Assembly (NCBI GenBank): GCA_964471435.1 | Contig: CAYYGA010000001.1 | Location: 108,944 to 172,943, forward strand | Length of the DNA stretch: 64,000 nt | Direction of reading: 5' to 3' | DNA from: an uncultured Facklamia sp. | GTDB taxonomy: Bacteria > Bacillota > Bacilli > Lactobacillales > Aerococcaceae | Shown: positions 23,744 to 60,131 of the stretch, piece after piece | Position numbering within the stretch: the stretch's first letter is position 1 | Layout of the letters: each line of letters begins with the position of its first letter | Notes under the pieces: model-generated | What the model was told of the DNA's origin: nothing | Databases searched by the model: none | What the model saw: only the letters and a program-made list of their open reading frames with translations | Translations under genes and position numbers: made by a program

Positions 23744-23795
23744 TAAAAAAAATTCCCCCTTTAGATAAATCACATAGATTTACTATGCTCTATTC

Positions 23796-30879: not shown

Positions 30880-30916
30880 TAAAAAAATAAACAGCTCTAA
30901 TTTTTAGAGCTGTTTA
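30880..30916 (-). terminator. Rho-independent terminator of the phn transporter operon
   Basis: AAACAGCTCTA (30889-30899) pairs with TAGAGCTGTTT (30905-30915). On the minus strand it is followed by ATTTTTTT. Confidence 0.75.
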
Positions 30917-30990
30917 ATATTCAGTAATTGATTGTTCAAGTGATTCGATTATAAAGACTAAAAAGTTGTGCTTATCCTAAAATGGCTGAC

Positions 30991-33355: not shown

Positions 33356-33367
33356 AAGTTTCAATCC

Positions 33368-34249: not shown

Positions 34250-34371
34250 AATACTATCACCCTTTCTTTAGTTATAAAAATAGCATAAAGAAATAGGGAG
34301 TACTATTAAGAACTCTTTTTTACTAATGAGGATTTTAAATAAATTTCAGACTTATATAAAAGATTATTATA

Positions 34372-35142: not shown

Positions 35143-35199
35143 AACTATCCGAGTACCTCCTTTCTTAATAAAACAGTTTAACTACTTTTAAAGTCACTA

Positions 35200-36273: not shown

Positions 36274-36277
36274 CGGC

Positions 36278-37624: not shown

Positions 37625-37679
37625 GCCCCGGGCTCCTTTCTGAGTGAGTACTTTTTATAGTAAAATGACTTGACTGTTT

Positions 37680-39092
37680 TTAATTAAAATTCCACTTTTC
37701 AGGTTGCTGCCAGACTGATAAAGCATCAAGCAGGGTGGGTATTTGAATAATGAAACAGATCAGTCCTAAAGCTGATGTTAACAGCAGACGGTTATTAATT
37801 GGGAATGCATTGAGAGCCGCTGTAAGTATCATGAGTGCGACCGATATTAACTGTTTTTTCTGGCTGAACGAAAAGCCTGTTCGGTGAGAAAAATAAGTCC
37901 GCGCTAAATAGAATACTACATAGGCCCCACAAGATGCTGCAGCTGCTCCTACTGCTCCATATAGAGGGGTTAACAACACATTCAATAATATACTGGGTAA
38001 TAAAGCTAAAGCAGAAACAAAAATATTAAAATAAGTTTTTCTGGAAAACACAATCCCCAATGTAGTAGTCTCAGATAAGGTGTACATAATATGGGGGAAA
38101 CTCAATAAACCTAAAATATACTGAGCCGACTCATATTCTTCGCCTAAAATCATTATAATCACCGGCCTGAAAACTAAAATCATAAAGAACATTGCACTTA
38201 AAATAAATAAAACAGCATCTGAAATAAATTTAAAATGTTTAATGGATTTATCTTCATCATGCCACCGGTAAGCAGTGGGAGTCCAGAAGGTTGCAAAAGC
38301 TGTACGAATAATACCGATAATATTCACGATATTTAAACCGGCCCCGTAAATCCCTAATTGCGTGGCCGTGGAAAATTGCCTCAGCATGATATTATCGATT
38401 GTATTTAACAAGGAAGTTAAACTCATAGCGAGCATTAAAGGCAGGCCAAATTGTAAGAGGAGCTTAATTAAAGCTGGATCTAATTGGAATCCGCTCCAAT
38501 TAATTAACTGACGATAACGTAGGAACAAGAGAGTGTCACCTATCAAATGTCCTAGAATCAAACCAAAAACAATAACTCTGAAATCCCGCATTCCCAGAAA
38601 CACCAAAGCCAAGGATGTAATAAAAATACTCAATTTTAAGAAAATAGTGAAAATGGAATATTCCTTTGCTTTTTCTTCCATTCGAATGGAGAGCATGATA
38701 AAACGCTCTAAAATCAATGCCAGAAGTAAAAAACCACTGAAGAAAATAATGTAACCATATTCGGCTGAACCAAAAACAAACCGTGAAAGAGATGACCTAA
38801 AAGTCATCATCACTATAAACATTACACCACCGGCTATCAAAGGCAGCACAGTTGCCTGCTGGAAAAGATATTTTTTATTTTTTATAAAATAATATTCCCT
38901 TGAAAAAGCTTGATCCATACCTATATAAAGAAAGGTGGGCAGATTCAGCATCAAGTTACGGTACAGGTTAGAAAATCCATATTGATCGGGCGCGATTAAG
39001 CGCGTTAAAATAGGAACTTGTATGATGGATATTAAAGCTCCAATGATGGAACCGATACTAAATCCTGTGAGTCTTTTTAGAAAATGCTTCAT
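37680..39092 (-). CDS. Oligosaccharide flippase (Wzx, MOP superfamily)
   Basis: 470 aa, 12-14 TMs. N-terminal GSIIGALISIIQVPILTRLIAPDQYG is typical of polysaccharide biosynthesis (PST) flippases. Confidence 0.7.
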   Translation of the reverse strand: MKHFLKRLTGFSIGSIIGALISIIQVPILTRLIAPDQYGFSNLYRNLMLNLPTFLYIGMDQAFSREYYFIKNKKYLFQQATVLPLIAGGVMFIVMMTFRSSLSRFVFGSAEYGYIIFFSGFLLLALILERFIMLSIRMEEKAKEYSIFTIFLKLSIFITSLALVFLGMRDFRVIVFGLILGHLIGDTLLFLRYRQLINWSGFQLDPALIKLLLQFGLPLMLAMSLTSLLNTIDNIMLRQFSTATQLGIYGAGLNIVNIIGIIRTAFATFWTPTAYRWHDEDKSIKHFKFISDAVLFILSAMFFMILVFRPVIIMILGEEYESAQYILGLLSFPHIMYTLSETTTLGIVFSRKTYFNIFVSALALLPSILLNVLLTPLYGAVGAAAASCGAYVVFYLARTYFSHRTGFSFSQKKQLISVALMILTAALNAFPINNRLLLTSALGLICFIIQIPTLLDALSVWQQPEKWNFN

Positions 39093-39104
39093 TAAAATAC
39101 GTCC

Positions 39105-40283
39105 TTAATCTAATTGAAAATGTTTAATTTCTTGATCTAACAGCTTTCGAAAAAGCTGGGCGGCTGCTTGATTAGTAAACTTTTTATCCTGGATTCTTTT
39201 TACACGGGTTTCACTGGATGGAAAAGAATTTTTTCTTTTTTCTTCTATTAAAGTCATTATTTCACTGCACCAATGTTCATGAGGCGCTTCTAGTGAAATA
39301 CGCTTTACCAGTCCCAGCTTTAAATCCACTTCATGACTTACCGCGTCACTGGCAATGGTTGGTAAACCGGCTGCTTGAGCTTCAATTGCTATTGTCCCTA
39401 AACCTTCAGAAAAGGAGGGCAGGATAACCGCATCAACTGCCGGAAATAAATCAGCTAAAGGATGTATACGGCCTAAAAACTTAATTTGAGAATCTAAGCC
39501 AGCTTCTTTTACTTGTCTCTTTAATTGTTCTTCCAACTTCCCTTCCCCTGCAACTATCAGATAAAGAGTTTGCTTCAAGGAGCGACACTGTTTAATAAGT
39601 TGAAAAGTAAAAGCGTGGTTTTTTACAGCTTCTAAACGGCCCACCTGTGCAATTACTAAATCCTCTTCAGACAATCCCCAGCTGTCACGCCAGCTCTTTC
39701 TTAAACTTTTCTTGACCGCAGAACTTTTCACCCAATCAGAGGGGTCTATGCTATTTGGAATAACGATAAAGTTTTCCCCTGCTTTTAAACTAAAGAGTGC
39801 ACTGATTGCCTGATGTGAACAGCCTACTTTTTCTTTAGACAGGGAGGTATTTATTCTTTGATCCCACCTGCGCTTAATTTCGATATGCAGAGGAACAGCC
39901 TCATTACTATATTTATAATGGGCATGAATATAAAAATTTTGAGCTAGCTGCGGTGAGTGTTTTTTAATTAAGCGGTAATAGACCAGCGCTCGATAACCGG
40001 CTATATGACAGTAAACTGCACTATAAGAATGAGTAAGCAGAATATTGTTAAAGCTTTGTTGAAAAGCAGACCAGCCTTTTTCTTTCGGATTTTGTAAATA
40101 AAAAACCTGCCCCTTACTGGATTCAATCTTTTGTAAAAAAGGGTCCGGGACTTGATGATAAGTTGCCACATCAAACATCATCTTATACGAAGGGGCTTCA
40201 ACCGCCAAATTTTGGATAAAAGTTGAGATGCCTCCTCCAAAAGAGGACATGATATGTAAAACTCGTTTTTGATCCTCAGCCAT
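39105..40283 (-). CDS. Glycosyltransferase family 4 (GT-B, GT1 clan)
   Basis: 392 aa. C-terminal EGLGTIAIEAQAAGLP (the E-x7-E region). Confidence 0.8.
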   Translation of the reverse strand: MAEDQKRVLHIMSSFGGGISTFIQNLAVEAPSYKMMFDVATYHQVPDPFLQKIESSKGQVFYLQNPKEKGWSAFQQSFNNILLTHSYSAVYCHIAGYRALVYYRLIKKHSPQLAQNFYIHAHYKYSNEAVPLHIEIKRRWDQRINTSLSKEKVGCSHQAISALFSLKAGENFIVIPNSIDPSDWVKSSAVKKSLRKSWRDSWGLSEEDLVIAQVGRLEAVKNHAFTFQLIKQCRSLKQTLYLIVAGEGKLEEQLKRQVKEAGLDSQIKFLGRIHPLADLFPAVDAVILPSFSEGLGTIAIEAQAAGLPTIASDAVSHEVDLKLGLVKRISLEAPHEHWCSEIMTLIEEKRKNSFPSSETRVKRIQDKKFTNQAAAQLFRKLLDQEIKHFQLD

Positions 40284-40335
40284 TTTCCTCCACCTCCTTA
40301 TTAATAATAGTAATCATTCAAAGTAAATTTTGAAT

Positions 40336-41331
40336 TTACTCTTCTATTTGCTCTTGATAAAACTGAGTGATTCTATTTTGAATTGCTGCTAGTGTCTCTT
40401 CACTCACCCGCTCGACTAATTTATCTTCTTCCATTATAGGCGGATTGGAAACGGTAAATATTTCAGCATCTGAAAGTGCAGTGGGGACATTTCTTAAGGA
40501 CATTTCCACCATTTGATTAAAACTGATATTAGTTACCAAAGCATTCTGCAGACTTATAAAATACTCATCCCATCGTCTGACCTCTGTCCATCGACTTAAT
40601 TTATCAATACTTGATAAGAAAAAGTCTTGCTGCAACGCTGTCGTCTGTTCTATATCCAAGCCATGCGGTTGAATCGACTGCCAAAGAGCCAGACTGCTAT
40701 CAACCTTTAGAGCACCTGTCTGGCTTTCTAATGGGTGAATTAAATTTACAAACTCATGAAGTTCACCAACATCAACTTCAATGATAAAATCAGCTTTCTG
40801 TCTGGATGCACTTTCTAAGACTTTCAGCACACTGGTCGATCCCCCCGTTGAGAACAGATCCGCCAAGGTTTGATTGGAATGAAATACTTGCTGCGGTGCC
40901 AGGTCCGATACTAAAAGCCGAGGTGAGTAATCGAAACGTAAAGCAGTTTGACTGCTGGGAATTAAGCTATACCAGGAAATAAGTGTCGCTTCTTGTTTAC
41001 CAATCCGGCCTGCTAAAGGGTAATCATAGCCTACCACTATAATTTCTACAGCCGGATCTGCCAGACGGGAGAGTCTTTGAGAGTGACTTTCTTTTAACAT
41101 TAAATCTTCAGAAAGAATGTCGGTCCGACCTATTAAAACACCATCTAAAGGCTGGTAGGCTTCTTCAAAATGATTTTTCTGGGTTAAGCATACAAAAAAT
41201 CCGACTACACCAATAAGCATCAAGATAAATAGCGAAAAGATTCTTTTACTCACAAAAAAACTTCCACTTCCTTGAGGTTGCGGCCGATGTTCCTCTGTTT
41301 GAGATAAGTGCCTGTAGTTACGCTTAGACAT
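40336..41331 (-). CDS. Divergent LytR-CpsA-Psr (LCP)-like membrane-anchored protein
   Basis: 331 aa. Basic N-terminus and a single TM, in the first-gene (cpsA) position of the polysaccharide locus. The by-eye match to the LCP core is weak (IIVVGYDY...; FSTGGSTSVLKVLESASRQKADFIIEVDVGELHEFVNLI). Confidence 0.4.
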   Translation of the reverse strand: MSKRNYRHLSQTEEHRPQPQGSGSFFVSKRIFSLFILMLIGVVGFFVCLTQKNHFEEAYQPLDGVLIGRTDILSEDLMLKESHSQRLSRLADPAVEIIVVGYDYPLAGRIGKQEATLISWYSLIPSSQTALRFDYSPRLLVSDLAPQQVFHSNQTLADLFSTGGSTSVLKVLESASRQKADFIIEVDVGELHEFVNLIHPLESQTGALKVDSSLALWQSIQPHGLDIEQTTALQQDFFLSSIDKLSRWTEVRRWDEYFISLQNALVTNISFNQMVEMSLRNVPTALSDAEIFTVSNPPIMEEDKLVERVSEETLAAIQNRITQFYQEQIEE

Positions 41332-41631
41332 CCTATCATTCCTTTATTATATTTTTATTTTATAAGCTTGATTAGTCATAGGAAATCAGCTTACGCTCAC
41401 ACAAAGCAAACTTAAAGTTTCTTCAAAAGCCTGCTTGGGAGTGAAGCCAATACTGAAAATCATTATAGCATATTTTCATATTGATAGATTTATCTTAGCT
41501 GTTTTTCCTATATTTTTTCTTCCTATAATTTCCATACCACTATGCTGTTAATTTTGATATACTTAACAACAGATAAAAACAGTAGTTTGTCACTGTTTTC
41601 ACTGATTAATTTTGAGTGAGGAGGGGAAAAA

Positions 41632-42084
41632 TTGGCAGAAGCCTTAATTGTTTTTGCAAGCTTGACTGGAAATACAGAAGAGATGGCTGATATTATCGCT
41701 GAAAGATTTGAAGATGAACATGGGATTACCACGGAGATTTTAGAGGTAATGCAGGCAGACGCAGCAGATTTTTTAGATTATGATGCAGTATTAGTTGGCT
41801 CTTATACATATGGAACTGATGGAATTCTTCCAGATGAGATGCTGGACTTTTATGAAGACTTAGGAGAACTGGACTTATCTGAAAAAGTCTTTGGAGTTTT
41901 TGGTTCCGGTGATACTTATTACGAAATTTTTTGCGGAGCCGTTGATGCATTTGAAAAACAGTTTACTCAAGTCGGTGCTGTAAAGGGTGGCGAAAGTGTC
42001 AAAATTAATTTAAATGCTGAAGGTGAAGATATCGAACGTTTGCAAACCCTGGCAGATGGCATCGCCGCTCAATTAATGCAATAA
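41632..42084 (+). CDS. Flavodoxin (short-chain)
   Basis: 150 aa. TTG start after GAGGAGGGG. FMN-phosphate loop ASLTGNTEEMA. Confidence 0.85.
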   Translation: MAEALIVFASLTGNTEEMADIIAERFEDEHGITTEILEVMQADAADFLDYDAVLVGSYTYGTDGILPDEMLDFYEDLGELDLSEKVFGVFGSGDTYYEIFCGAVDAFEKQFTQVGAVKGGESVKINLNAEGEDIERLQTLADGIAAQLMQ

Positions 42085-42136
42085 ATGTTAACTTTGGTTA
42101 ATTTTTTATTTACTTTGGAATTAGAAAGAGGATTTT

Positions 42137-43378
42137 ATGACTTTAGAAAATTTTGATCAACTATTACAAAAATATGCTGATTTAATTGTCCATAAAGGGA
42201 TAGCTGTAACTAATGGAGATTTTGTTTCCATTAATACCGATATTGAACAAGCACCCTTAGTGCGATTAATTGTAGACTCAGCCTACCTGGCTGGGGCAGC
42301 ACACGTAAATGTAGACTGGTCTGATGACGCATTAAGCCGCATGCATTACCAATACCGTAGTGAAGAAACACTTAAAGAAGTACCTCAACATCGTATTGAT
42401 GAAGGCCACTATAATATCGAGAAAAGAACAAAGCGTATTTCTTTACGTTCAAGCAACCCAAATGCTTTAAAAGGGATTAATCCCGTTAAAATAAATACTG
42501 CTCAAAAAGCTACTTCTAAAGCTCTTGAACATGTACGCCTGGCGACTCAAGCGAATGTGGTATCATGGATAGTTGCAGCCGGTGCCGGTAAAGAATGGGC
42601 TGCTTTGGTCTTTCCCGAACTAGAAAATAGTGAAGCACAAGTCGATGCTTTATGGGATCAAATCTTCAAAACAACACGCGTCTATGAAGAGGATCCAATC
42701 AAAGCATGGGATGATCACGAAGCACGTCTCAATGAAAAAGCATCTTTCTTAAACCAACAGCAATTTAATGCCCTTCATTACACTGGTCCAGGAACTGACT
42801 TAACCTTAGGTTTACCCAAAAACCATGTTTGGGAATCTGCTGGTTCTTATAATGAAAAAGGTGAAAAATTCATTGCTAATATGCCGACTGAAGAAGTTTT
42901 TACAGCCCCTGATTCACGCAGAGCAGATGGTGTCATTGCAGCTTCAAAACCTTTATCCTACGGCGGAACTGTTATCGATGGAATGGTTTTCCATTTCCAA
43001 GAAGGTAAAGTTACCGAAGTCTCAGCAGAAGAAGGAGAAGAAACACTGCGCCAATTGGTAGAAGATAACGAAGGTTCACGATCCTTAGGTGAAGTGGCTT
43101 TAGTTCCTCACCAATCTCCTATCTCACAATCAGGAATTATTTTCTTCAATACTCTTTTTGATGAAAATGCATCCAACCACCTTGCTTTAGGCCAGGCATA
43201 TGCTTCTTCAGTTGAAGGCGGCACTAAAATGTCTCAAGAAGAATTAAATGATGCTGGATTAAACCGCTCAAATGTTCATGTAGACTTCATGGTAGGTAAC
43301 GCAGAGATGAATATTGACGGGATTAAAGAAGATGGTACACGGGTAGCTATTTTCCGTAAAGGTGAATGGGCCTTTTAA
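42137..43378 (+). CDS. pepS: Aminopeptidase, M29 family (PepS/AmpS-like)
   Basis: 413 aa. The C-terminal half carries M29-like ENASNHLALG and NVHVDFM metal-ligand regions. Confidence 0.8.
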   Translation: MTLENFDQLLQKYADLIVHKGIAVTNGDFVSINTDIEQAPLVRLIVDSAYLAGAAHVNVDWSDDALSRMHYQYRSEETLKEVPQHRIDEGHYNIEKRTKRISLRSSNPNALKGINPVKINTAQKATSKALEHVRLATQANVVSWIVAAGAGKEWAALVFPELENSEAQVDALWDQIFKTTRVYEEDPIKAWDDHEARLNEKASFLNQQQFNALHYTGPGTDLTLGLPKNHVWESAGSYNEKGEKFIANMPTEEVFTAPDSRRADGVIAASKPLSYGGTVIDGMVFHFQEGKVTEVSAEEGEETLRQLVEDNEGSRSLGEVALVPHQSPISQSGIIFFNTLFDENASNHLALGQAYASSVEGGTKMSQEELNDAGLNRSNVHVDFMVGNAEMNIDGIKEDGTRVAIFRKGEWAF

Positions 43379-43553
43379 AAAATTTATTAATTTGAAAGTT
43401 TAATCATAAAACACTCCTTGATCTCAGTAAAATTAAGCCTTTTTCTTACCAACTTATTTAAGTAAGTATTAGGAGTATCCCTACTGAGATCTGGGTATCA
43501 GGTCGGTATCCAGTTTATCGATATGGACCAAAAATAAACTAGGAGGCAGCATA

Positions 43554-43823
43554 GTGGGAACTTCAAATGACTTTAGTAATATGATAGAAGAAGAAATTTC
43601 CAAGCAATTAAAAGAATTTGACAAGCGAGTCGATCGGACAGGCTGGCCTTTGCTTATTGTAGGCGTCATCGCCTTATTCTTGCTAGTTTATTTATTTTCG
43701 ACAGTATTCAGCTTTCCTACCAACGAAGAGTACACTGACAGCCAGCAGGCTTTGACTCAGCGTATAGCAGATTTAGAAGAACGTGTAGAGTATTTAGAAC
43801 TTCAAACAGAAAGCTCTGAATAA
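43554..43823 (+). CDS. Small single-pass membrane protein with a C-terminal coiled-coil segment
   Basis: 89 aa. GTG start 7 nt after AGGAGG. One TM (LLIVGVIALFLLVYLFSTVF). The C-terminus is LTQRIADLEERVEYLELQ. Confidence 0.5.
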   Translation: MGTSNDFSNMIEEEISKQLKEFDKRVDRTGWPLLIVGVIALFLLVYLFSTVFSFPTNEEYTDSQQALTQRIADLEERVEYLELQTESSE

Positions 43824-43924
43824 ATTATCCATGCCAGGCGTGGCGACTAAACTTACTGGAAGCTGTCATCTTGATATCAATTATCAAAATCAACTGACTA
43901 AAATTTTAAAAAAGGAGCTGACTT

Positions 43925-45040
43925 ATGAGACTGTTACATATAAATTCATACTTTTCAACTTCAGGTTTATTCCAGCAACTTTATGATCGCCAAGTCGCCC
44001 AAGGTCATGAATTAAATGTGTATGTGCCTATTTCCCGTCAATATTCCGAAGACAAACTGGCAGCTGTCGGCGACTACACTTCTGTCAGCCGCAATCATAA
44101 CCAATGGGATCGACTGTTTTTTCATTTAAAACATAAAAAAATATTAGAAGATTTACAAAGCTATTATTCATTCTCAAAATTTGATATTATTCACGCTCAC
44201 TCCACTTTTTCCAATGGATGGCTGGCACGTCAAATAGCACTGGAATATGATATTCCCTATGTCGTAGCAGTGCGTAATGCAGACCTGCGGACTTTTTTTG
44301 AAAAAATGCCTTGGCTTCGAAATCTAGGCCTGGATATTTTAAGAGATGCAGCACAAATTATTTTTATTTCAAAGAATACCTGCGAGCAAGTATTCGCTAA
44401 ATATATCCCTTTAACCGAACATGACAGCTTTAAAGCTAAGACGCGTATCATCGCAAATGGGATTGATGATTTTTGGCACGAAAACCGCTATGACAATAAG
44501 CCTTTAAAATTAAATCCTCCTTTAAAAATTGTTTCAGCAGGGAAATTAACTCCGGGTAAAAGATTCATTCAGCTGGCAGATATGATTGAGTCTTACAATC
44601 AAATCTATGATAATGCCCAACTGCATGTTATTGGGCCTAATTGGAATAATAAAGTTTTAAAGCAAATCGAACAGCATGAAGCAATCATCTATCATGGTGA
44701 AATGAATAAAGAAGAACTCAAAAATTTCTATCGAGAAATGGATATTTTCGCCTTGCTCTCCTACCCTGAAACCTTTGGACTCGTTTATCCAGAAGCTATG
44801 AGTCAAGGCTTGCCGGTTATTTACAGCAGAGGTGAAGGTTTTGATGGTTTCTTTGAAAATCACCAAGTAGGAGTCAGTGTGGCTTTAAACGACCAGATTG
44901 CATTTAATGAAGCCTTACAATTTATTATTCGATATTATAAAGATTTGTCTAAAAATGCCCGTGTTGGGATAGAATATTTTAAGTGGGATCATATCGCCGA
45001 CCAGTATAATGAACTATACTCCGATATTTTGAATAATTAA
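43925..45040 (+). CDS. Glycosyltransferase family 4 (GT-B)
   Basis: 371 aa. ETFGLVYPEAMSQGLPVIYSRGEG (the E-x7-E region). RBS is AAGGAG. Confidence 0.8.
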   Translation: MRLLHINSYFSTSGLFQQLYDRQVAQGHELNVYVPISRQYSEDKLAAVGDYTSVSRNHNQWDRLFFHLKHKKILEDLQSYYSFSKFDIIHAHSTFSNGWLARQIALEYDIPYVVAVRNADLRTFFEKMPWLRNLGLDILRDAAQIIFISKNTCEQVFAKYIPLTEHDSFKAKTRIIANGIDDFWHENRYDNKPLKLNPPLKIVSAGKLTPGKRFIQLADMIESYNQIYDNAQLHVIGPNWNNKVLKQIEQHEAIIYHGEMNKEELKNFYREMDIFALLSYPETFGLVYPEAMSQGLPVIYSRGEGFDGFFENHQVGVSVALNDQIAFNEALQFIIRYYKDLSKNARVGIEYFKWDHIADQYNELYSDILNN

Positions 45041-49849: not shown

Positions 49850-50476
49850 ATGGAAAAATTTAAGATTGAAGAAGGGTCTTTAATTGTTATTAATCATCCA
49901 AAACAAGAATTGAAAAAAGTTTTCCCCGCTGCTTTTATCAAACAAACAGAAATAGGAAATTTTCAAGAGTATCTATTTTATCATCAACGCTTTTTCCCAG
50001 GCCTGCCTCGAAAAAAAAGACCGGATTTTATTTTAAATCAACTTGATAGTCAAGAAATAACGGCGCACTTTCTCCTAGTAAGTTCTGCTTTTGGTTTAGA
50101 TGATGACGAGGATGCTGGTCTGGCCGTGATTACCGCTTTGAAATCCATCGGTCTTCGTGCGCTAATCGGCCGTAAGTTTGGGGAGCAGTTCAAAATGAAT
50201 GCCTTAAAAAAAGGATTATTGATAATTGAGCTCACCCATGATGATTGGCAGCATTTAATAGACTGGCAGGCGGATCAAGCTCAAATAAATCCATTAATTA
50301 AAATAGATTTAATTAATGAGAAAATTATTTTTAATCATTCAGAAATGAATTTTACCCTAAATAAAAGTATAAAAAACCATTTTTTAAAAGGAGAAGATCA
50401 AATCAGTTATTCATTACAATTTCTTAATGCAATTAAAGCATACGAGGAAAATCTAACTTATAATAAATATAAATAA
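49850..50476 (+). CDS. LeuD-like (aconitase swivel domain) paralogue with degenerate substrate-loop motifs
   Basis: 208 aa, RBS AGGGAGG. It is collinear by eye with the real LeuD at 51965-52573 (EYLF/EFLF, PDFILN/PSFPLN, GLRALIG/GFRVVIAG, FKMNALKKGLL/FYMNSLKNGLL, IDL/VDL, AIKAYE/ALKSYE). NVNTDQILP is replaced by PKQELKKVFP, and GGSSREHA by GLDDDEDA. Confidence 0.6.
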   Translation: MEKFKIEEGSLIVINHPKQELKKVFPAAFIKQTEIGNFQEYLFYHQRFFPGLPRKKRPDFILNQLDSQEITAHFLLVSSAFGLDDDEDAGLAVITALKSIGLRALIGRKFGEQFKMNALKKGLLIIELTHDDWQHLIDWQADQAQINPLIKIDLINEKIIFNHSEMNFTLNKSIKNHFLKGEDQISYSLQFLNAIKAYEENLTYNKYK

Positions 50477-51964: not shown

Positions 51965-52573
51965 ATGCAAGCATTTACCGTTCATCGTGGGACAACTGTT
52001 ACTCTGTGGGAAGACAATGTGAATACCGACCAAATTCTTCCCAGCCGTTATTTAAGTCGTATAGAAAAAACAGGCTACGATGAATTTTTATTCGCTAACT
52101 GGCGTTACTTAATTACCGAAGCAGAACCTGAATCAAGAAAACTTAACCCCAGCTTTCCATTGAATCTACCAGACCGTCAAGGAGCGAGTATTTTAATTAC
52201 AGGTGATAATTTCGCAGGAGGCTCTTCAAGAGAACATGCCGTTTGGGCCTTGGATAATTATGGTTTTCGCGTGGTGATAGCAGGTTCCTATTCAGATATT
52301 TTTTATATGAACTCTTTAAAGAATGGTTTATTGGCCCTTACACTGCCTTTAGAAGATCGCGAGCTGCTAGCTCAATTAGCGGGCGATGAAGAAATTGAAG
52401 TAGATTTAGTAAAGCAGGAAGTTAGGACAGCTGATACTACTTTTTCTTTTAAAATTGATGAAGAATGGCGTTATAAATTACTTCACGGTATTGATGATAT
52501 TACTCAAACTTTGGAACATGAGACAGCTTTAAAAAGCTATGAAGCCAAGTGGGATCCTTTCTATCAAAAGTAA
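51965..52573 (+). CDS. leuD: 3-isopropylmalate dehydratase small subunit
   Basis: 202 aa. NVNTDQILP and NFAGGSSREHAVWAL motifs. Confidence 0.92.
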   Translation: MQAFTVHRGTTVTLWEDNVNTDQILPSRYLSRIEKTGYDEFLFANWRYLITEAEPESRKLNPSFPLNLPDRQGASILITGDNFAGGSSREHAVWALDNYGFRVVIAGSYSDIFYMNSLKNGLLALTLPLEDRELLAQLAGDEEIEVDLVKQEVRTADTTFSFKIDEEWRYKLLHGIDDITQTLEHETALKSYEAKWDPFYQK

Positions 52574-52736: not shown

Positions 52737-53486
52737 CTATAATGCCTCAACATGTAATAAGTCCATTATTTGTTTTCGATAAGCTAAGAACTGATCATCA
52801 GTTCTGCCTCTAGGATGATCTAGTTCGATCGGAATAATTTCCATTACACGACCAGGTCGCGGCGACATCACAATTACTTTCTCACTCAGATATATTGCCT
52901 CATCAACATCGTGAGTCACCATAATCATTGTAATATTATTTTTTTCCCAAATACTTAACAGCTCTGTTTGTAGTCGAAGTCGGGTAAATGCATCGAGGGC
53001 ACCTAAAGGCTCATCTAATAAAAGAATTTCAGGATTATTATAAATAGCTCTTGCTAAAGAAACTCTTTGAGCCATCCCTCCAGATAATTGATGAGGGTAT
53101 GCTTGCTCAAACCCACTTAAGCCAATTGTATCGATCATCTCCTGCACAGGCATTTGCTTATTTTTTAATTTCCCAAGTATCTTTGGACCAAATTTTATAT
53201 TGTCTTCTACCGTCAACCAAGGAAATAAGGTTGGACTTTGGAAAGCCATCCCAATCTTGCTGTCAGGACCAGTCACCTCTTTTGTATCAAGCACAATTCT
53301 ACCTGTAGTAGGAGGTGTTAACCCGGCAATAATACGAAGAAGTGTTGATTTACCAGACCCACTTGCTCCTACAATACTGATGAATTCTCCTTCTTGAATT
53401 TCAAGATTAATTGAATCCAAGGCTTTGGTCACCGTGGCATCTGTATTAGCGAATATTTTTGAAACATCATCGATAAATAAATCCAC
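52737..53486 (-). CDS. ABC transporter ATP-binding protein, NitT/TauT (SsuB/TauB-like) family
   Basis: 249 aa. GTG start. Walker A GASGSGKST, signature LSGGMAQR, Walker B LLLDEP. Confidence 0.85.
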   Translation of the reverse strand: MDLFIDDVSKIFANTDATVTKALDSINLEIQEGEFISIVGASGSGKSTLLRIIAGLTPPTTGRIVLDTKEVTGPDSKIGMAFQSPTLFPWLTVEDNIKFGPKILGKLKNKQMPVQEMIDTIGLSGFEQAYPHQLSGGMAQRVSLARAIYNNPEILLLDEPLGALDAFTRLRLQTELLSIWEKNNITMIMVTHDVDEAIYLSEKVIVMSPRPGRVMEIIPIELDHPRGRTDDQFLAYRKQIMDLLHVEAL

Positions 53487-53489
53487 CGC

Positions 53490-54497
53490 TTAAACACTCC
53501 CCTCTTGCCACTTAAGGACGTACCGTTTAATTTTATCTAATAAAAATTTAACCGTAACAAAAATCAAGCAGATAATCACAATAGCCGCGTACATTTTGTC
53601 GTATTGAGCCCAGTTACGCTGCCATGTGACGTACCAACCTAAACCTGACTCCACCCCAACCATCTCTGCGAAGATTAATGCTGTACACGCAGTACTCATG
53701 GCTTGAGTAAGCCCTTGAAAGATATTTGGCATTGCTCCTGGTATAGTTACTCTGCGAATGAGCTGCTGGTCATTGGCTCCCAAAACTTGGGCTGCTTCAT
53801 AGTAAGATTGACTAATGTTATGTATTCCAGCTATCGTTGATAAAGATACCGAGAACCAGACACCTAAGGCAATAATGAATACCGCACCGGTAAATAGTGA
53901 GGTGACTAAAACCATTACGATTGGAATCCATGTAATGGTTGGAATCGCTCCGATTAAACTCATAAAAGGCGCTAACCAATAATTGACTCGTTTACTGTAG
54001 CCACAAATAATACCAGTAATTAATCCTAAAGCAACGCCCCAGCCGTAACCCGTAAATAAGAGCTTGAGAGAATTTAATATTGAATCTAAAAGATATGCCC
54101 GGTCATCAATCATGGCATTTATAATTGCATCCACCCAAGGGAAATAAGGTAAAGTTAAGCGTCCTGTTTTAAGTGTCATTACATCATATATAATCAGCAG
54201 AACATATACCAATGTATGAAATGGTGCTTTATATCGCAGCCGCGCAAATGCTTTCTTAGAAAAAAGCGAGGCGATAAAATAAATGGTTGAACCTGCTATA
54301 AAAATTAATAGAAAATAGACATAATTCATAGTTTGCTGCTGCGAGCCTTCATTTTCTATAAACCAATATTCCAAGATGGCTAAAACACCTGCTACGATTG
54401 GCAGAAAACAAATCACCCGATCAATGAATATTTCTTGTTTTGTTTTTGGTTTACTTTCAAGCTCTAGAAGCTCTTCTTTCGTAATTGTTTCTGACAT
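53490..54497 (-). CDS. ABC transporter permease, NitT/TauT family, with an N-terminal extension
   Basis: 335 aa. EAA-type loop YEAAQVLGANDQQLIRRVTIPGAMP. There are about 3 extra TMs N-terminal to the usual 6-TM core. Confidence 0.8.
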   Translation of the reverse strand: MSETITKEELLELESKPKTKQEIFIDRVICFLPIVAGVLAILEYWFIENEGSQQQTMNYVYFLLIFIAGSTIYFIASLFSKKAFARLRYKAPFHTLVYVLLIIYDVMTLKTGRLTLPYFPWVDAIINAMIDDRAYLLDSILNSLKLLFTGYGWGVALGLITGIICGYSKRVNYWLAPFMSLIGAIPTITWIPIVMVLVTSLFTGAVFIIALGVWFSVSLSTIAGIHNISQSYYEAAQVLGANDQQLIRRVTIPGAMPNIFQGLTQAMSTACTALIFAEMVGVESGLGWYVTWQRNWAQYDKMYAAIVIICLIFVTVKFLLDKIKRYVLKWQEGSV

Positions 54498-54568
54498 ATC
54501 ACACCTCCATCATTAATAAAATTTTGGGCTATTTCGCAATAGCCCAAAGTTGAGGATACTCTTATTAT

Positions 54569-55603
54569 TTAGTTCTGTGGGGACCAAATCATCTCCATTA
54601 ATTCTTCGACAGTTTTATCAGCATCCATAAAACCAAATGTTTGGTAATCAGCAATAATTGCTTTAAGTGTTGCTTCAGTAGTGGCATCTGACACTTTATA
54701 ATCTAATGATTTAATATAATCAACAGTCGTATCGCGATCACCTGTAGTCCAGTCGTTTGCATACAATGCATCAACAAAGTCTTCTGGGTTCTCCGCAGCC
54801 CACTCACGAGTTCTTTGAATCGCACGTGCTACTTTCTTGGCGGCAACCGGATTATTTGTAACAAAGTCATTATTTGCATAAAATGCACAACAAGCTTCTT
54901 GACTAAAATCTTCATCAAACGATAATGAACGAACGCGTTTTAATGTCCCGTTCTCAACGAAATCCCATGCAAATTTGTCGGTTAATATAACGCCTTGAAT
55001 TTCCCCGCTTTCGACTGCCTGCACAGCTGCACCACTGTCTACTTGACGATAATTGATATCTAATGGATCAATTCCGTCATTATTAAAGAAGCGGAAAGCA
55101 ATATTTTGGTCTGATGATCCAGTTCCTTCAGGTACCGCTACGATTTGTCCTACTAAGTCAGCAGTATCATTAATTTCATCGTTGTTTAAAACATAAAGTG
55201 ATTTACAACCTACATGCAGTCCAGTTAACGTAGTATATCCTACATCATTAGCAATCGGAATAACGTTAGTAGAAATATGTCCTGCTGTTACGTCCGCTTG
55301 CCCTGTCCCTAGTGCATCAGAGTTACTTGCAGCTTGATAGATTTCAATTTGTAAGCCTTCTTCTTCATAAAAGCCTTCAGTTAAAGCCACTCCTATAATG
55401 CCTGTACAATCTCCACCACTATAAGCTACCTTGATAGCTTCATTAGCTTTAGGTTCACTCTTAAATGCTTCTTCCTCTTCAGCTGTGATTTCAACAGTAA
55501 CAACGTCATTGTCCTGAGCATTGACAGTAGTCATTGCCGCTTGTGCGAATGGTAAAGTTGCCAGTGATAAAGCTATAATTTTTTTTACGAATGATTTTTT
55601 CAT
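54569..55603 (-). CDS. ABC substrate-binding protein, NMT1/SsuA/TauA-like (paralogue 2)
   Basis: The start is set at MKKSFVKK (ATG 55603, RBS GGAGGA). Signal peptide ends VNA-QD with no lipobox. Four Cys (GGDCTG, VGCKS, EACCAFY) are shared with the neighbouring paralogue. Confidence 0.75.
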   Translation of the reverse strand: MKKSFVKKIIALSLATLPFAQAAMTTVNAQDNDVVTVEITAEEEEAFKSEPKANEAIKVAYSGGDCTGIIGVALTEGFYEEEGLQIEIYQAASNSDALGTGQADVTAGHISTNVIPIANDVGYTTLTGLHVGCKSLYVLNNDEINDTADLVGQIVAVPEGTGSSDQNIAFRFFNNDGIDPLDINYRQVDSGAAVQAVESGEIQGVILTDKFAWDFVENGTLKRVRSLSFDEDFSQEACCAFYANNDFVTNNPVAAKKVARAIQRTREWAAENPEDFVDALYANDWTTGDRDTTVDYIKSLDYKVSDATTEATLKAIIADYQTFGFMDADKTVEELMEMIWSPQN

Positions 55604-55635
55604 ATTTTCCTCCAATGTTAAGTCGCTTAAATTTA

Positions 55636-56664
55636 TTAGTGTTGTGGTCTCCATACCATTTCTAATAATTCTTCATCGGTCATACTATCATCAATAAAGC
55701 CAAACTCTTTATAGTCTGAGATAACCATCTTTAATGATTCTTCGGTATCACTATCCGTCACACCGTAATCTAACTCTGCAATATAATCATTTATAATATC
55801 AATGTCACCAGTAGCCCAATTATTCTCTATCATGACATTCACATACTCTTCAGGATTTTCAACAATCCACTCACGTGTTTTTTGAATTGCACGTGTCAAT
55901 TTTTTAGTCGCAATAGGATTTTCTGCCTGAAAATCATTATTAATATAAATTCCACAACATGGCTGCCAACTGAAATCTTCATCATAAGACAAAGCACGCA
56001 CATATCTTAATTGACCACTATCAACGAACTCTCTTGCAAATTGATCATTAAGTACGACCCCTTGAACCTCACCATTTTCAATCGCTTGTACTGCTGCTCC
56101 AGAGTCTACTTGACGGTAATTAATTGATAATGGGTCAATACCATCCGCTTTGAAGAATCGGAAAGCAATATTTTGGTCTGAAGCTCCCATTCCATCAGGA
56201 ACAGCTAATATTTGACCTACCAAATCCGCAGTAGTTTCTATATCGCTGTCAGTAGCGACATAAATTGATTTACAACCTGTATGAGCTCCCGTCACCATGG
56301 AGAAGTTTACACCATTAGCCATTGGTACCATTGCTGTAGCAATATGATCCCCAGAGATATCTGCCTGCCCGGTACCTAATGAATCATTAGCGCTGCTCAT
56401 ACTGATTATCTCAGTGTTTAAGCCTTCCTCTTCATAAAACCCAAGTGCTTGCGCTACTCCAAGGACTCCTAAACAAGTTCCACCATTATAGCCCACTTGA
56501 ATAAGTTCATTCGCAGCGTCCTCTTCTTGAAAAGCTGTTTCTTCTTCTTGACTTATTTCAACAGTGACCACTTCTTCTGCACTTACGGTCGGAATAAAAG
56601 CACTACCAGCTCCTACAAGTAAAGTTGATGCCACAACCATTGCTTTAACTAACGTTTTTTTCAT
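55636..56664 (-). CDS. ABC substrate-binding protein, NMT1/SsuA/TauA-like (paralogue 1)
   Basis: 342 aa. Signal peptide ends VSA-EE with no lipobox. Collinear with 54569-55603 along its whole length (GGTCLG, TGCKS, QPCCGIY). Confidence 0.75.
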   Translation of the reverse strand: MKKTLVKAMVVASTLLVGAGSAFIPTVSAEEVVTVEISQEEETAFQEEDAANELIQVGYNGGTCLGVLGVAQALGFYEEEGLNTEIISMSSANDSLGTGQADISGDHIATAMVPMANGVNFSMVTGAHTGCKSIYVATDSDIETTADLVGQILAVPDGMGASDQNIAFRFFKADGIDPLSINYRQVDSGAAVQAIENGEVQGVVLNDQFAREFVDSGQLRYVRALSYDEDFSWQPCCGIYINNDFQAENPIATKKLTRAIQKTREWIVENPEEYVNVMIENNWATGDIDIINDYIAELDYGVTDSDTEESLKMVISDYKEFGFIDDSMTDEELLEMVWRPQH

Positions 56665-57068
56665 AACTATTGTCTCCCTTATGTTTGATAAAAAATAGCT
56701 TGAACTTTACAACATGCTCATTGTATCGCATGACTTTAAAAGCTACAATGGGGCCTTAAATCATTAATAATTATTTTAAATAAACCTTTAAAAATAATTT
56801 TAAACGTTTTTTTATTTTTTGAATCCCTTTTCATTTTTTAATAACAACCTTAATCTAAATTAATGAGTAAAATCTTAAGGTATTATAACCTATGCCACAG
56901 TAAAACATCGGGTTATTTTAATAAACTAGGATACTTCCAAGAGATATATAAAATTTATATCTTAAAAATTTTATACTTATTAATAAATATAATTAGTTAA
57001 AAGTAATTATTTTCCTTATTATATTCATAACATGAGAAATAGTGAGCAAGGAAGAAAGGAAGTATATA

Positions 57069-58229
57069 ATGGAAATCAAGACAAATTTACCAGAAATATT
57101 TGAAGAATTTAATGATGCAAGGCGTGAAGGCTTTCTTACCGTTAAAGAATTTAAAGAACAGGGCCAGCCTGTTATAGGTGCTTATTGTACTTATATCCCT
57201 GAGGAATTGGTTATTGCGGTGGGAGCAACAATGATTGGCTTATGCTCGACTACTGAAGAATCGATTGATGATGCAGAGGAAGATTTACCCCGTAATTTAT
57301 GCCCTTTAATAAAGTCGAGTTATGGTATGGCAAAAATGGATAAATGCCCTTATTTTCACTTTGCTGATTTAGTGGTAGGAGAGACCACTTGCGACGGTAA
57401 AACAAAAATGTATGAATATATGACGGAATTTAAACATTTATACTTAATGGAAGTTCCCCGCTCACGAAAACTAGAACAAAGTCAGAATATGTGGTACGAA
57501 GAAGTAGTTCGGTTTAAAGAGTATTTAGAAGAGTATTTCCAAACCGAAATTTCTGGAGAAAAGTTAAATGAAGCAATTGACTTAATGAATCGCTACCGCA
57601 CAGCTAAAAGAAATTTCTACCGAACAGGAGCCTTATCACCTTCAGTATTAACTGGAAAAGAAATTTTTGGTGTGTGTTTTGGGACAGGCTTTACTTTTGA
57701 TAAAGAGGAAACAATTAAAAATTTAAATCTATTAACCGAAGAAGCATATGCACGCTATGAAGCGGGGAATACCTTAGTAGATAAACCGCGAATTTTGATT
57801 ACCGGCTGCCCAATGGGCGGGGTCACAGAAAAAATTATTGATGCCATAGAAGCTAATGGCGGCCGAGTGGTCGCATATGAAAACTGTACTGTTTCAAAAT
57901 CAGTAGAAGAGTTGGTAAACATAGAAGAGCCTGATCAAATTAAAGCGTTGGCGGATAAATATTTAAATGTAGGCTGTGCTTGTGCTTCTAGTAATGATAC
58001 CCGTGTCCAATTAATTGATGAAATGGTAGATGATTTCCAAGTTGATGGTGTTATTGACATGGTTTTACAAAACTGTGTACCTTTTATGGTTGAATCCTTG
58101 AGAATTAAACGTTTCTGCCAAGAAGAAAAAAATGTACCTTATATGTATTTAGAAACTGATTATACTGAATCAGATATTGGACAATTAAATACCAGAGTTG
58201 CTGCTTTTATTGAAATGTTGGAGGGATAA
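57069..58229 (+). CDS. HgdB/BcrC/BadD-family (2-hydroxyacyl-CoA dehydratase-type, HGD-D) Fe-S protein, single subunit (YjiM/double-cubane-cluster-protein-like)
   Basis: 386 aa from ATG 57069 (RBS AAAGGAAG 6 nt upstream; the track GTG at 57042 has no RBS). Cys-rich with family-typical GAYCTYIPEEL, GETTCDGKTKMYE and ITGCPMGG. It is immediately followed by an activase gene. Confidence 0.7.
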   Translation: MEIKTNLPEIFEEFNDARREGFLTVKEFKEQGQPVIGAYCTYIPEELVIAVGATMIGLCSTTEESIDDAEEDLPRNLCPLIKSSYGMAKMDKCPYFHFADLVVGETTCDGKTKMYEYMTEFKHLYLMEVPRSRKLEQSQNMWYEEVVRFKEYLEEYFQTEISGEKLNEAIDLMNRYRTAKRNFYRTGALSPSVLTGKEIFGVCFGTGFTFDKEETIKNLNLLTEEAYARYEAGNTLVDKPRILITGCPMGGVTEKIIDAIEANGGRVVAYENCTVSKSVEELVNIEEPDQIKALADKYLNVGCACASSNDTRVQLIDEMVDDFQVDGVIDMVLQNCVPFMVESLRIKRFCQEEKNVPYMYLETDYTESDIGQLNTRVAAFIEMLEG

Positions 58230-58231
58230 GA

Positions 58232-59035
58232 ATGTTTTACATTGGTATGGATTCAGGTTCAACAACCACTAAGGCTGTTATCTTTTCTGAAGGAGAACTA
58301 ATAGACAAGTATCTAATACCAACCGGTGGACGACCCCGAGAAGCGATGGCAGAGATAATGGATTACTTCAAGCACCGCCATCAATATAGTCCAAACCAAG
58401 TTAAAGTAGTTAGTACTGGATATGGCCGTGATTTATGGGAAAGCGATTGGGTTGTCACAGAAATAACGTGTCATGGTAAAGGTGCCGAATATCTACACCC
58501 GGGGATAGAAAACGTGATTGACATCGGTGGACAAGATTGTAAGACAATGAAACTCAATGGCAAAGGACTAGTCATGGATTTTAATATGAATGACCGCTGT
58601 GCAGCTGGTACCGGTCGGTTTGTTGAAGTGATGATGCGCACTTTAGGTGAAGAAGTTGATGTTCTCGACGGATTTGTTGAAGGAGCCGTACCAGCAAAAA
58701 TCAATGCTACTTGTACAGTATTTGCTGAATCAGAAGTGATTTCTTTACTCGCTAAAGGAGAAAAACAAGGTGATATCGCTCTAGGTGCCCTTCATTCGAT
58801 TACTCAGCGCATCAACGGACAATACGCCAAACTACGTCCTGATAAAAATGCACCTGCCCTTTTTACAGGAGGATTATCTAAAAGTCAAACTTTTGCTAAT
58901 ATACTAGCTGAACGTTTTGATACTTCTGTCGTAACACATACCCTCGGCCAATATGCTGGCGCAATCGGCGCAGCATTAATTGCCGAACAAAGGTTTAATA
59001 AACAAAATAAGCAAAAAGTTAGCCTGATACAATGA
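58232..59035 (+). CDS. BcrA/BadF/HgdC-type ATPase (acyl-CoA dehydratase activase / archerase)
   Basis: 267 aa. ASKHA-fold motifs GMDSGSTTTK and IDIGGQDCK. Bridging-cluster Cys lie in NDRCAAGTGRF and NATCTVFAESE. RBS is GGAGGG. Confidence 0.85.
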   Translation: MFYIGMDSGSTTTKAVIFSEGELIDKYLIPTGGRPREAMAEIMDYFKHRHQYSPNQVKVVSTGYGRDLWESDWVVTEITCHGKGAEYLHPGIENVIDIGGQDCKTMKLNGKGLVMDFNMNDRCAAGTGRFVEVMMRTLGEEVDVLDGFVEGAVPAKINATCTVFAESEVISLLAKGEKQGDIALGALHSITQRINGQYAKLRPDKNAPALFTGGLSKSQTFANILAERFDTSVVTHTLGQYAGAIGAALIAEQRFNKQNKQKVSLIQ

Positions 59036-59078: not shown

Positions 59079-60131
59079 ATGAAAAGAAAATTATTACAGT
59101 TAATGACTTTAGCGACTTTATTGGCTCCAATGAGTTTACCCACAGTAAGTATTTTTGCCCAAGACAATACAGATGCTGCAGTAAGTGATTTTGACACAAC
59201 TCCCTCAGGTTCAGATGACTGGGTTCAAATTTATGAAACAGGGAATCATAATTTTGCTAAATTTGGCGAATTAAATCCAGAAGTGGCTCAGGCTTTTGGA
59301 GCATTAGGAGGAGTAGCTCTAGCAGACGGTGAAGTATCTGCTCTAGACAAAGAACTGATCGCAGTAGCCTTAAGTGTAGAAGCACAATGTACTAAGTGTA
59401 TTTCTTCTCATGTTATAAATGCTTTAAAATTAGGAGCGACACGTAATCAAATCGCTGAAGTTGTAGGAGTTAATATATTGATGGGAGGCGGACCTACATC
59501 GGTTTACGCTGGCAAAGCCATTGATGCCTTTGACGTTTTATCAGTTGACTATGCTGAAGAAATTGAAGCGGCTCAAGCGGAAATTTCCGATGCTGAAGAT
59601 TCAATTACTGAGACTGAATCTGAAATAGAAGCTACAGAATATGATACTGAGGCTTCTGGATCTGATGATTGGGTAGAAATATATGAAACAGGAAATCATA
59701 ATTTTGCTAAGTTCGCTGAATTGAATCCAGAGGTGGCTGAAGCTTTTGGAGCTTTCGGAGCAGCTGCCTTAGCAGATGGTGAAGTGAGTGCATTAACAAA
59801 AGAAATGATTGCAGTAGCATTATCGGTTTCTAGCCAATGTACAAAATGCATTTCTTCTCATGTAATTAATTTTATTAATTTAGGCGGTACTCGTGAACAA
59901 TTGGCTGAAATTGTAGGAGTAAATATCTTAATGGGCGGTGGACCGACTTCCGTTTATGCCGGAAAAGCCATTGATGCCTTTGATGTTTTATTACCAGCAT
60001 ATGGAACACAAGTTGGAGATCAAGATAATGAAGAATCAGTTGAAGATGAGTCAACTGAGGAAGATATAGTAGAAGAAGAAACCTCTGTAGAAGTAACTGA
60101 TGAAGAGGAAACTACTGAAGAAAATAATTAA
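59079..60131 (+). CDS. Exported protein with two tandem AhpD/carboxymuconolactone-decarboxylase (CMD)-like domains and an acidic tail
   Basis: ATG 59079 lies 7 nt after AGGAG (the track TTG at 59058 is less likely). Signal peptide MKRKLLQLMTLATLLAPMSLPTVSIFA-QD. Each repeat carries CTKCISSHV (CxxCxxxH). An acidic linker and a D/E-rich C-terminus are present. No LPXTG and no lipobox. Confidence 0.7.
   Translation: MKRKLLQLMTLATLLAPMSLPTVSIFAQDNTDAAVSDFDTTPSGSDDWVQIYETGNHNFAKFGELNPEVAQAFGALGGVALADGEVSALDKELIAVALSVEAQCTKCISSHVINALKLGATRNQIAEVVGVNILMGGGPTSVYAGKAIDAFDVLSVDYAEEIEAAQAEISDAEDSITETESEIEATEYDTEASGSDDWVEIYETGNHNFAKFAELNPEVAEAFGAFGAAALADGEVSALTKEMIAVALSVSSQCTKCISSHVINFINLGGTREQLAEIVGVNILMGGGPTSVYAGKAIDAFDVLLPAYGTQVGDQDNEESVEDESTEEDIVEEETSVEVTDEEETTEENN
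59208..59541 (+). repeat. Intragenic tandem duplication, copy 1 (CMD-like domain)
   Basis: 334 nt, aligning without gaps to 59658-59991 (offset 450 nt). Roughly four-fifths of positions are identical by eye. Confidence 0.85.
59658..59991 (+). repeat. Intragenic tandem duplication, copy 2 (CMD-like domain)
   Basis: See copy 1. Long shared runs include TATGAAACAGG, AATCATAATTTTGCTAA, CATTTCTTCTCATGT and AAAGCCATTGATGCCTTTGA. Confidence 0.85.

Follow-up and report, generated by a model that had tools for sequence, protein, structure and literature searches.

A predicted YjiM/YjiL-type double-cubane reductase pair beside a relative of the SAO importer in an uncultured Facklamia

The reductase locus and its two genes

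A 64,000-nucleotide stretch of an uncultured Facklamia sp. genome (assembly GCA_964471435.1, contig CAYYGA010000001.1, forward-strand positions 108,944 to 172,943; hereafter the window, within which all coordinates are numbered) carries on its + strand two closely spaced genes that we assign, from sequence comparison and structure modelling and with a probability of about 90%, to a YjiM/YjiL-type (class II) double-cubane cluster protein (DCCP) and its dedicated ATP-dependent reductase. The first gene (57069–58229) encodes a 386-aa HGD-D protein predicted to be the [8Fe-9S] catalytic component, and the second (58232–59035, + strand) a 267-aa activase of the YjiL/DCCP-R type, or “archerase”, with a predicted bridging [4Fe-4S] site at Cys123 and Cys161. 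An importer operon diverges from the pair on the − strand, and a gene for a secreted AhpD-like protein follows it. Family membership, motif, fold and gene pairing were established by comparison, and the cluster type, ATP coupling and electron path are expected to follow those of the characterised homologue.

The HGD-D reading frame runs from an ATG at 57069 to the stop at 58229. An alternative in-frame GTG at 57042 would extend the protein by 9 residues to 395 aa; two observations favour the ATG, namely an AAGGAAG ribosome-binding site 8 nt upstream of it and the alignment of 386-aa homologues from residue 1. The activase is a separate, unfused open reading frame (ORF) starting 2 nt after the reductase gene (TAA-GA-ATG; an earlier note on this DNA had given the gap as 3 nt), with a GGAGGG inside the end of the upstream ORF, and the short gap suggests translational coupling. 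The locus has the same GC content as the remaining window, and its architecture is repeated in six independent metagenome contigs of this species. Across 89 related loci anchored on the reductase, a same-strand adjacent activase was present in 56, and none was found in 27 for which the flank covered at most 10 kb on each side and several contigs were shorter. Activase-less loci (including L025, L030, L040, L050, L054, L056 and L060) come especially from Dorea, Sellimonas, Ezakiella and other Clostridia, and several of their YjiM-type genes sit inside MtaA-like/corrinoid (mlp) gene clusters.

The activase itself matches BcrAD_BadFG (E = 1e-51) and passes TIGR00241 (228.5 bits, cutoff 125.4); its matches in the PDB are HgdC (1HUX, 1e-44), HadI (4EHT, 1.5e-44) and DCCP-R (7YYL_E, 1e-41). 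Both of the bridging-cluster cysteines claimed for it earlier could be located, C123 within NDRCAAGTGRF and C161 within ATCTVFAESE, and both align with the HgdC and HadI motifs.

Family assignment and fold of the HGD-D protein

The Pfam domain HGD-D (PF06050) spans residues 40–384 of the 386-aa protein (E = 1e-110). Furthermore, the protein passes the NCBIfam equivalog NF040772, which NCBI names “double-cubane-cluster-containing anaerobic reductase” (490 bits, cutoff 350; model positions 1–372 of 372); the double-cubane cluster protein group to which this test refers is cluster IV of IPR010327. The models for related enzymes were not passed, with scores of 76 bits for BzdN (cutoff 454), 42 bits for BcrC (cutoff 421) and 21 bits for BcrB (cutoff 487), in addition to HadC (discussed below). 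The best PDB sequence matches were 7YYL and 6ENO, the DCCP of Carboxydothermus hydrogenoformans (E = 2e-72), with HadC (E = 9e-22) and BzdN (E = 5e-18) ranking lower. An AlphaFold (AF2) model of the protein (predicted local distance difference test score, 79; predicted template-modelling score, 0.83) agrees with the DCCP fold, in which the cluster sits between two Rossmann-like domains: its top Foldseek matches were 7YZM_A, 7YYL and 6ENO (template-modelling (TM) score 0.82–0.84), followed by BzdN (0.78) and HadC (0.76). Together with identities of 54% and 45% to Escherichia coli YjiM and YjiL, the NF040772 score and the PDB matches bear out the two-gene architecture proposed in the earlier note, that of YjiM/YjiL or of DCCP with its reductase, DCCP-R.

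An HGD-D domain with an adjacent activase is also what dehydratase operons contain, HadC is the second-best NCBIfam and PDB match, and many database entries for homologues still bear the name “2-hydroxyacyl-CoA dehydratase”. On these grounds the gene might encode an orphan beta-type subunit (HgdB/HadC-like) of a 2-hydroxyacyl-CoA dehydratase, with the alpha subunit and the coenzyme A (CoA)-transferase elsewhere in the genome. We judge this very improbable: the HadC model NF052456 scores 113.9 bits against a cutoff of 700, whereas NF040772 is passed; the protein is 54% identical to YjiM and only 22–23% identical to HadC; and it keeps a seven-Cys motif where dehydratase subunits have a three-Cys motif (PMC7317905). 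When all ORFs of 100 aa or more in the 64-kb window were searched with Pfam or NCBIfam models, no second HGD-D gene, no CoA-transferase, no acyl-CoA ligase and no selenium-utilisation gene (including sel and grd genes) was found, which agrees with the earlier description of a single HGD-D gene lacking both a second subunit and a CoA-activating enzyme. A hidden or fused second subunit was likewise looked for and none was seen, the 386 aa being collinear with YjiM and DCCP and having no extra domain, and a second HGD-D paralogue occurred in only 3 of the 89 related loci. Although the pair shares its superfamily fold and activase type with the HgdAB/HadBC dehydratases and their activators HgdC/HadI (which the activase matches as strongly as DCCP-R), HgdAB and HadBC are heterodimers with one [4Fe-4S] cluster per subunit, three-Cys motifs, CoA-ester substrates and a CoA-transferase, none of which is seen here.

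The class I benzoyl-CoA reductases BzdNO-PQ/MbdONPQ offer a mechanistic parallel, since BzdN too contains an [8Fe-9S] double cubane, which an ASKHA ATPase supplies (PMC11971306), and BzdN and MbdN are detectable as relatives of the HGD-D protein in profile, sequence and fold searches. It is scarcely conceivable that the protein itself belongs to a class I aryl-CoA reductase as a subunit that stores electrons in the manner of BzdN. The BzdN score is far below its cutoff, and the double cubane of BzdN stores electrons for a separate catalytic subunit, whereas the 64-kb window holds no such partner, with no BzdO-like catalytic subunit, second ATPase subunit or aromatic-degradation genes; the host, moreover, is a fermentative Aerococcaceae bacterium. 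The pair is an ordinary member of an already named family of oxygen-sensitive iron-sulfur reductases driven by ATP, and enzyme taxonomy gains nothing new from it. The earlier note had considered that the protein might fall in a functionally assigned family, which holds in part: the family is named and structurally defined, but a physiological function is not assigned to it.

Cysteine motif and predicted cluster ligands

The HGD-D protein contains 12 cysteines (positions 40, 59, 78, 93, 108, 203, 247, 273, 303, 305, 336 and 350), rather than the approximately ten reported earlier. Eight of these (C40, C59, C78, C93, C108, C273, C303 and C336) are invariant in a 13-member alignment, and all but C93 make up a seven-Cys motif (C40, C59, C78, C108, C273, C303, C336) that is invariant in 13 homologues and aligns with the cysteines of the C. 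hydrogenoformans protein (DCCP_Ch). The published family motif likewise comprises seven cysteines, six cluster ligands and one adjacent Cys (PMC7317905). By alignment and invariance, C40, C78, C108, C273, C303 and C336 are the predicted double-cubane ligands, and C59 appears to correspond to the non-ligand Cys beside the cluster (ligand numbering drawn from the 2020 review, PMC7317905, and the 2022 complex paper, PMC9351452). The spacings C78-X29-C108 and C303-X32-C336 match the published motif, and the remaining spacings are off by 1–3 residues. In addition, Asn76 aligns with the DCCP Asn that, at the reductase interface, contacts the reductase cluster (PMC9351452). Of the motifs highlighted in the earlier note, the cysteines of GAYCTY (C40) and GETTCDGK (C108) are invariant across the family, whereas that of TGCPMGG (C247) is variable, being replaced by Ser in several Enterococcus homologues and by Thr in the Carboxydothermus enzyme.

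Two points weigh against the cluster assignment. The type of cluster cannot be read from sequence alone, and [8Fe-9S] stays a prediction for class II proteins; and the published motif spacing does not tell C303 from C305 in the C303-A-C305 pair, C303 being preferred as ligand because it is invariant. As a separate observation, two metagenomic homologues, P0063 (439 aa) and P0082 (430 aa), have either the LPKNLCPLIKSSYGF...TCDGKKKM segment or the N-terminal Cys region duplicated internally, which may represent assembly artefacts or a real doubling of the cluster-binding loops.

Relation to characterised systems and distribution

The closest named counterpart is the YjiM/YjiL pair of E. coli K-12 (b4335/b4334; locus L004, 4563668–4565850), which is identical over its full length at 54% and 45% of positions, collinear (386 vs 383 aa), and alike in Cys motif, gene order, tight spacing and the lack of N-terminal channel-closing helices; E. 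coli YjiM passes NF040772 at 531 bits. By this similarity the two pairs may have the same function. In the transcriptome table of a ygfI mutant, yjiM and yjiL shift together with hyc, hyp, pflB and dmsA (PMC9068703), a pattern that fits expression of the E. coli orthologues under anaerobic conditions.

The best solved relative is DCCP/DCCP-R of C. hydrogenoformans (CHY_0487/0488; PDB 6ENO, 7YYL, 7YZM, 7YZQ), with which the window pair shares the fold, the seven-Cys motif, the interface Asn and a two-component ATP-driven design (PMC9351452). Identity to DCCP_Ch is 36–38%, and the window protein is shorter: residue 27 of the query pairs with DCCP_Ch residue 63 at the start of the alignment, leaving approximately 36 N-terminal residues absent, and its channel is predicted to be more open (class II vs class I). 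Class II DCCPs, of which YjiM is an example, are those without N-terminal channel-closing helices (Jeoung, Martins & Dobbek 2020, PMC7317905), and the absent helices, the 386-aa length and the unfused reductase together place the window protein in that class.

The host is a member of the Lactobacillales, as judged by the tryptophanyl-tRNA synthetase encoded in the window, which is 72–75% identical to those of Globicatella, Facklamia, Ruoffia and other Aerococcaceae. This fits the lactic-acid-bacterium-like genome that the earlier note had described. Its further remark that such a host is unusual does not hold: Facklamia, many Enterococcus, Vagococcus, Agrilactobacillus and Listeria have homologues of the reductase at 60–82% identity, and NCBI already gives several of these proteins the name “double-cubane-cluster-containing anaerobic reductase”. 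In a scan with each species represented by a single genome, whose results did not take in the window's own genome or its closest relatives, at least 598 reductase loci were confirmed, and those listed include Enterobacteriaceae, Aeromonas, Clostridium, Lachnospiraceae and Peptoniphilaceae. The host group is therefore unremarkable, such reductases being common there.

Predicted electron path and electron donor

Modelled on the characterised DCCP system (PMC7317905, PMC9351452), catalysis would begin with a low-potential donor, presumably flavodoxin or ferredoxin, reducing the activase [4Fe-4S] cluster, which would bridge a homodimer via Cys123 and Cys161 of each monomer. ATP binding and hydrolysis would then alter the helix-cluster-helix geometry and push an electron uphill into the [8Fe-9S] double cubane of a homodimeric HGD-D protein, a cluster expected to be held by the six predicted ligands with C59 alongside. 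Once super-reduced, this cluster could reduce a substrate beyond the reach of ordinary cellular reductants, and neither a second subunit nor CoA activation would be needed. Acetylene, hydrazine and azide are the only compounds on which DCCP_Ch is known to act, all of them in non-physiological reactions, and in papers up to 2025 no physiological substrate is known for any DCCP member (PMC9351452, PMC11971306). With the approximately 36 N-terminal channel-closing residues absent, the site of the window protein is expected to admit something larger than acetylene.

Archerases take electrons from ferredoxin or flavodoxin (PMC7317905), and the earlier note had pointed to a flavodoxin gene in the window as a possible donor. 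The gene is genuine, encoding a short-chain flavodoxin (41632–42084, + strand; NF005587, 181 bits, cutoff 138). It lies 15 kb from the pair, with an M29 peptidase, a glycosyltransferase, a methionine aminopeptidase and the leu operon in between, and of the 89 related loci a single one has a flavodoxin nearby. A genomically linked donor was rejected on these two counts, and the flavodoxin is a possible electron donor by chemistry only.

A divergent importer related to the SAO system

Upstream of the reductase pair and divergent from it, an ATP-binding cassette (ABC) importer operon (52737–56664, − strand) encodes two substrate-binding proteins, a permease and an ATPase. Binding protein 1 (55636–56664) belongs to the NMT1/SsuA superfamily (PF09084, PF13379) and has four invariant cysteines including a CC pair; binding protein 2 (54569–55654) is 57% identical to it and has the same four cysteines. 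The permease (53490–54497) carries an N-terminal extension of approximately 90 aa and has SaoP as its closest named family, and the ATPase (52737–53486) is likewise closest to SaoA. These families belong to the selenocysteine-assisted organometallic (SAO) locus, saoTECXLBPAD, in which the permease gate is selenocysteine (Sec) or, rarely, Cys (Haft & Gwadz, bioRxiv 10.1101/2022.07.06.499078).

The likeness to SAO consists of SaoA, SaoP and SaoX as closest families, a CC at the homologous position, and adjacency to an NF040772 reductase with activase. The CC with an Asn five residues on is invariant in both window binding proteins, in the orthologues of an Aerococcaceae-like contig (L005) and of an Oscillospiraceae metagenome-assembled genome (MAG; L039), and in the true SaoX and a second binding protein of a Clostridiaceae MAG (L078). 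Every component nevertheless scores below the SAO cutoffs: the binding proteins reach 71 and 61 bits against SaoX, the best NCBIfam match of protein 1 (cutoff 300); the permease reaches 119.8 bits against SaoP (cutoff 295); and the ATPase reaches 261 bits against SaoA (cutoff 360), ahead of taurine and nitrate ATPases. The selenocysteine position of SaoP is occupied by Phe in the window permease and by Val in the L005 and L039 orthologues, the importer has no in-frame TGA, no gene for SaoL (MerB-like), SaoB, SaoE, SaoC, SaoT or SaoD was found in the window, and the importer differs further in having two paralogous binding proteins and the extended permease. A true SAO transporter was rejected on the model cutoffs, the gating residue and the absent locus genes; the importer is a relative of the SAO system, not a member. 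Five residues before the gate, the window permease also has a Cys in place of a usually conserved Trp.

For comparison, the stretch 3732–14134 of L078 includes a complete SAO locus (SaoE, SaoC, SaoX, SaoL, SaoB, SaoP, SaoA), with an in-frame TGA in SaoP at 8626–8628 (the ORF cut at the Sec codon scores 286) and true sao genes that pass their cutoffs at 444 and 450 bits. Directly after this locus comes an NF040772 reductase (555 bits), itself followed by a second SAO-like importer that scores below the cutoffs.

Association of the importer with NF040772 reductases

Orthologues of the window importer adjoin an NF040772 protein in L005, L039, L098, L104, L106 and L107, in divergent, co-directional and convergent orders. 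L005 and L039 are the two such cases among the 89 reductase-anchored loci: in L005 the importer lies approximately 3 kb from the reductase, and in L039 permease, ATPase, binding protein and reductase follow one another on one strand. A metagenome scan anchored on the binding protein recovered 14 close relatives, of which 10 loci had transporter genes and some flank; an adjacent reductase was present in four of these (L098, L104, L106, L107; co-directional and divergent), the one in L106 passing NF040772 at 450 bits. Adjacency in distant lineages and in different arrangements indicates a linkage that recurs, though not universally, and recurrence beside a CC-motif importer suggests an imported substrate bearing sulfur, selenium or a metal.

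Published and observed neighbourhoods point the same way. DCCP genes lie beside sao loci in 21 of 52 genomes, and SelD is also encoded for 955 of 970 NF040772 proteins scoring >400 bits (Haft & Gwadz, bioRxiv 10.1101/2022.07.06.499078); comparative genomics provisionally ties these reductases to selenium or sulfur metabolism (PMC10418091; PMC5322559; bioRxiv 10.1101/2022.07.06.499078). Among the 89 loci, recurring neighbours confirmed by hidden Markov models were MtaA-family methyltransferases (10), EF2568/SclA-like cysteine desulfurases (10), the selenium protein YedF (8), O-acetylhomoserine sulfhydrylase (7) and corrinoid proteins (6), a set that fits this comparative genomics; glycine reductase genes stand beside the reductase pair in Facklamia L001 and in L005.

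Several observations weigh against a link between importer and reductase. Six of the 10 importer-anchored loci have no DCCP in the available flank. Among the relatives that are named or lie on long contigs, the five closest (Facklamia L001, Enterococcus L002, Vagococcus L003, L007 and L009) have other neighbours, and E. coli yjiML, flanked by yjiN, mdtM and yjiK, has neither a CC-motif importer nor an AhpD-like gene. All three component types score below the SAO cutoffs, the permease lacks a Sec or Cys gate, and the sao genes looked for are absent from the 64 kb. The link is, finally, one of association.

An alternative is that the reductase forms a module of its own, with a substrate that is endogenous or reaches it by diffusion, and with the importer and the AhpD-like gene unrelated to it and their adjacency a product of gene shuffling. 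The widely varying neighbourhoods of the closest relatives, the E. coli arrangement, the loci with no DCCP and the confinement of the AhpD-like gene to this species among the loci examined all favour such a module. Conversely, importer and NF040772 genes are adjacent in at least five more contexts, in varied orders and with reductases only 42–79% identical, although only some 5% of genomes carry an NF040772 gene (Haft & Gwadz, bioRxiv 10.1101/2022.07.06.499078), and the related SAO importer shows the same adjacency (L078; Haft & Gwadz). Weighing both sides, we give a self-contained module slightly less than an even chance, and regard a real functional coupling of importer and reductase as about evenly balanced. 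There are likewise roughly even odds that the adjacent CC-motif importer brings in the substrate or a solute from which the substrate is made; such a substrate would be a small, thiol-reactive molecule with sulfur, selenium or a metal(loid) in it.

The AhpD-like gene and the divergent intergenic region

The gene downstream of the pair (59079–60131, + strand) encodes a secreted tandem AhpD/CMD-like protein of 350 aa from its ATG (a TTG lies upstream at 59058), with a signal peptide and two CMD domains (PF02627). Its halves are approximately 80% identical, each with CTKCxxxH, which suggests a recent internal duplication; they are joined by an acidic linker and followed by a C-terminal tail that is 42% Asp/Glu. 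The gene begins 43 nt after the activase stop codon behind an AAAGGAG ribosome-binding site, with no + strand terminator-like site between, and is probably co-transcribed with the pair. It stands next to the pair in five metagenome contigs of this species, a sixth (L095) ending inside the gene, and was not found in the 89 related loci apart from one weak single-domain match. It was accordingly rejected as a conserved partner, being seen only in contigs of this species. The protein also gives weak matches to AhpD families of arsenosugar and selenoprotein systems (TIGR04169, 85 bits, cutoff 120).

Between the importer and reductase operons lies an AT-rich divergent intergenic region of 404 nt (56665–57068). 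No Rfam match was obtained for the whole window at gathering thresholds or for 56600–57120 at E ≤ 1, and a riboswitch or leader RNA was rejected on this basis. Promoter and terminator scans did no better than on shuffled sequence, the region holding only weak promoter-like sites; a search for a shared operator returned only AT-rich low-complexity repeats, and no Rex- or FNR-like box was seen in the region, such palindromes occurring at chance frequency.

Other genes of the window

Elsewhere in the window, one-carbon and glycine genes run contiguously (15899–23773, − strand), encoding formate-tetrahydrofolate ligase, FolD, an FTCD_C cyclodeaminase-like protein and glycine cleavage T, H, P-alpha and P-beta, and two half-size chromate-transporter (ChrA-type) genes overlap by 4 nt (26111–27240, + strand). 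Polysaccharide genes at 29417–45040 encode UDP-glucose dehydrogenase, a family 2 glycosyltransferase (GT2), two GT1/GT4 glycosyltransferases, a Wzy-like polymerase and a Wzx-like flippase. A phosphonate-type ABC importer (30991–34249) breaks into this series, with a 542-aa permease in which two domains are fused, and two ORFs of the region (35200–36273 and 40336–41331) have no family match. The leu operon (+ strand) has the order leuA-leuB-X-leuC-leuD, in which X (49850–50476) is a divergent LeuD-like protein of 208 aa (NF002458, 106 bits, cutoff 167; no Pfam match) and an ordinary LeuD is encoded at 51965–52573.

Implications for double-cubane cluster proteins

New at this locus is the recurring partnership of an NF040772 reductase with a Sec-free, CC-motif SAO-like importer, a pairing independent of selenocysteine-containing transporter subunits. 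The value of the pair lies in the context that it gives to the substrate question of double-cubane proteins, which dates from the 2018 structure. The most far-reaching interpretation, which we offer only as a speculative possibility, is that the two divergent operons form one system, a Sec-free, cut-down relative of SAO in Lactobacillales and gut Clostridia. Its four-Cys (CC) binding pocket could conceivably, though this is rather unlikely, capture a thiol-reactive selenium, sulfur or metal(loid) compound, and in this species the secreted AhpD-like protein, with its tandem CxxC motifs, may help here. The YjiM/YjiL reductase might then, again as a doubtful proposition, use ATP to drive a reduction by which the element is released or detoxified. 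If the operons do form one system, the importer ligand would give the first hold on what class II enzymes, E. coli YjiM among them, reduce physiologically. Since binding proteins are soluble and easily expressed and their ligands are directly identifiable, the linkage offers a practical experimental route to the substrate.

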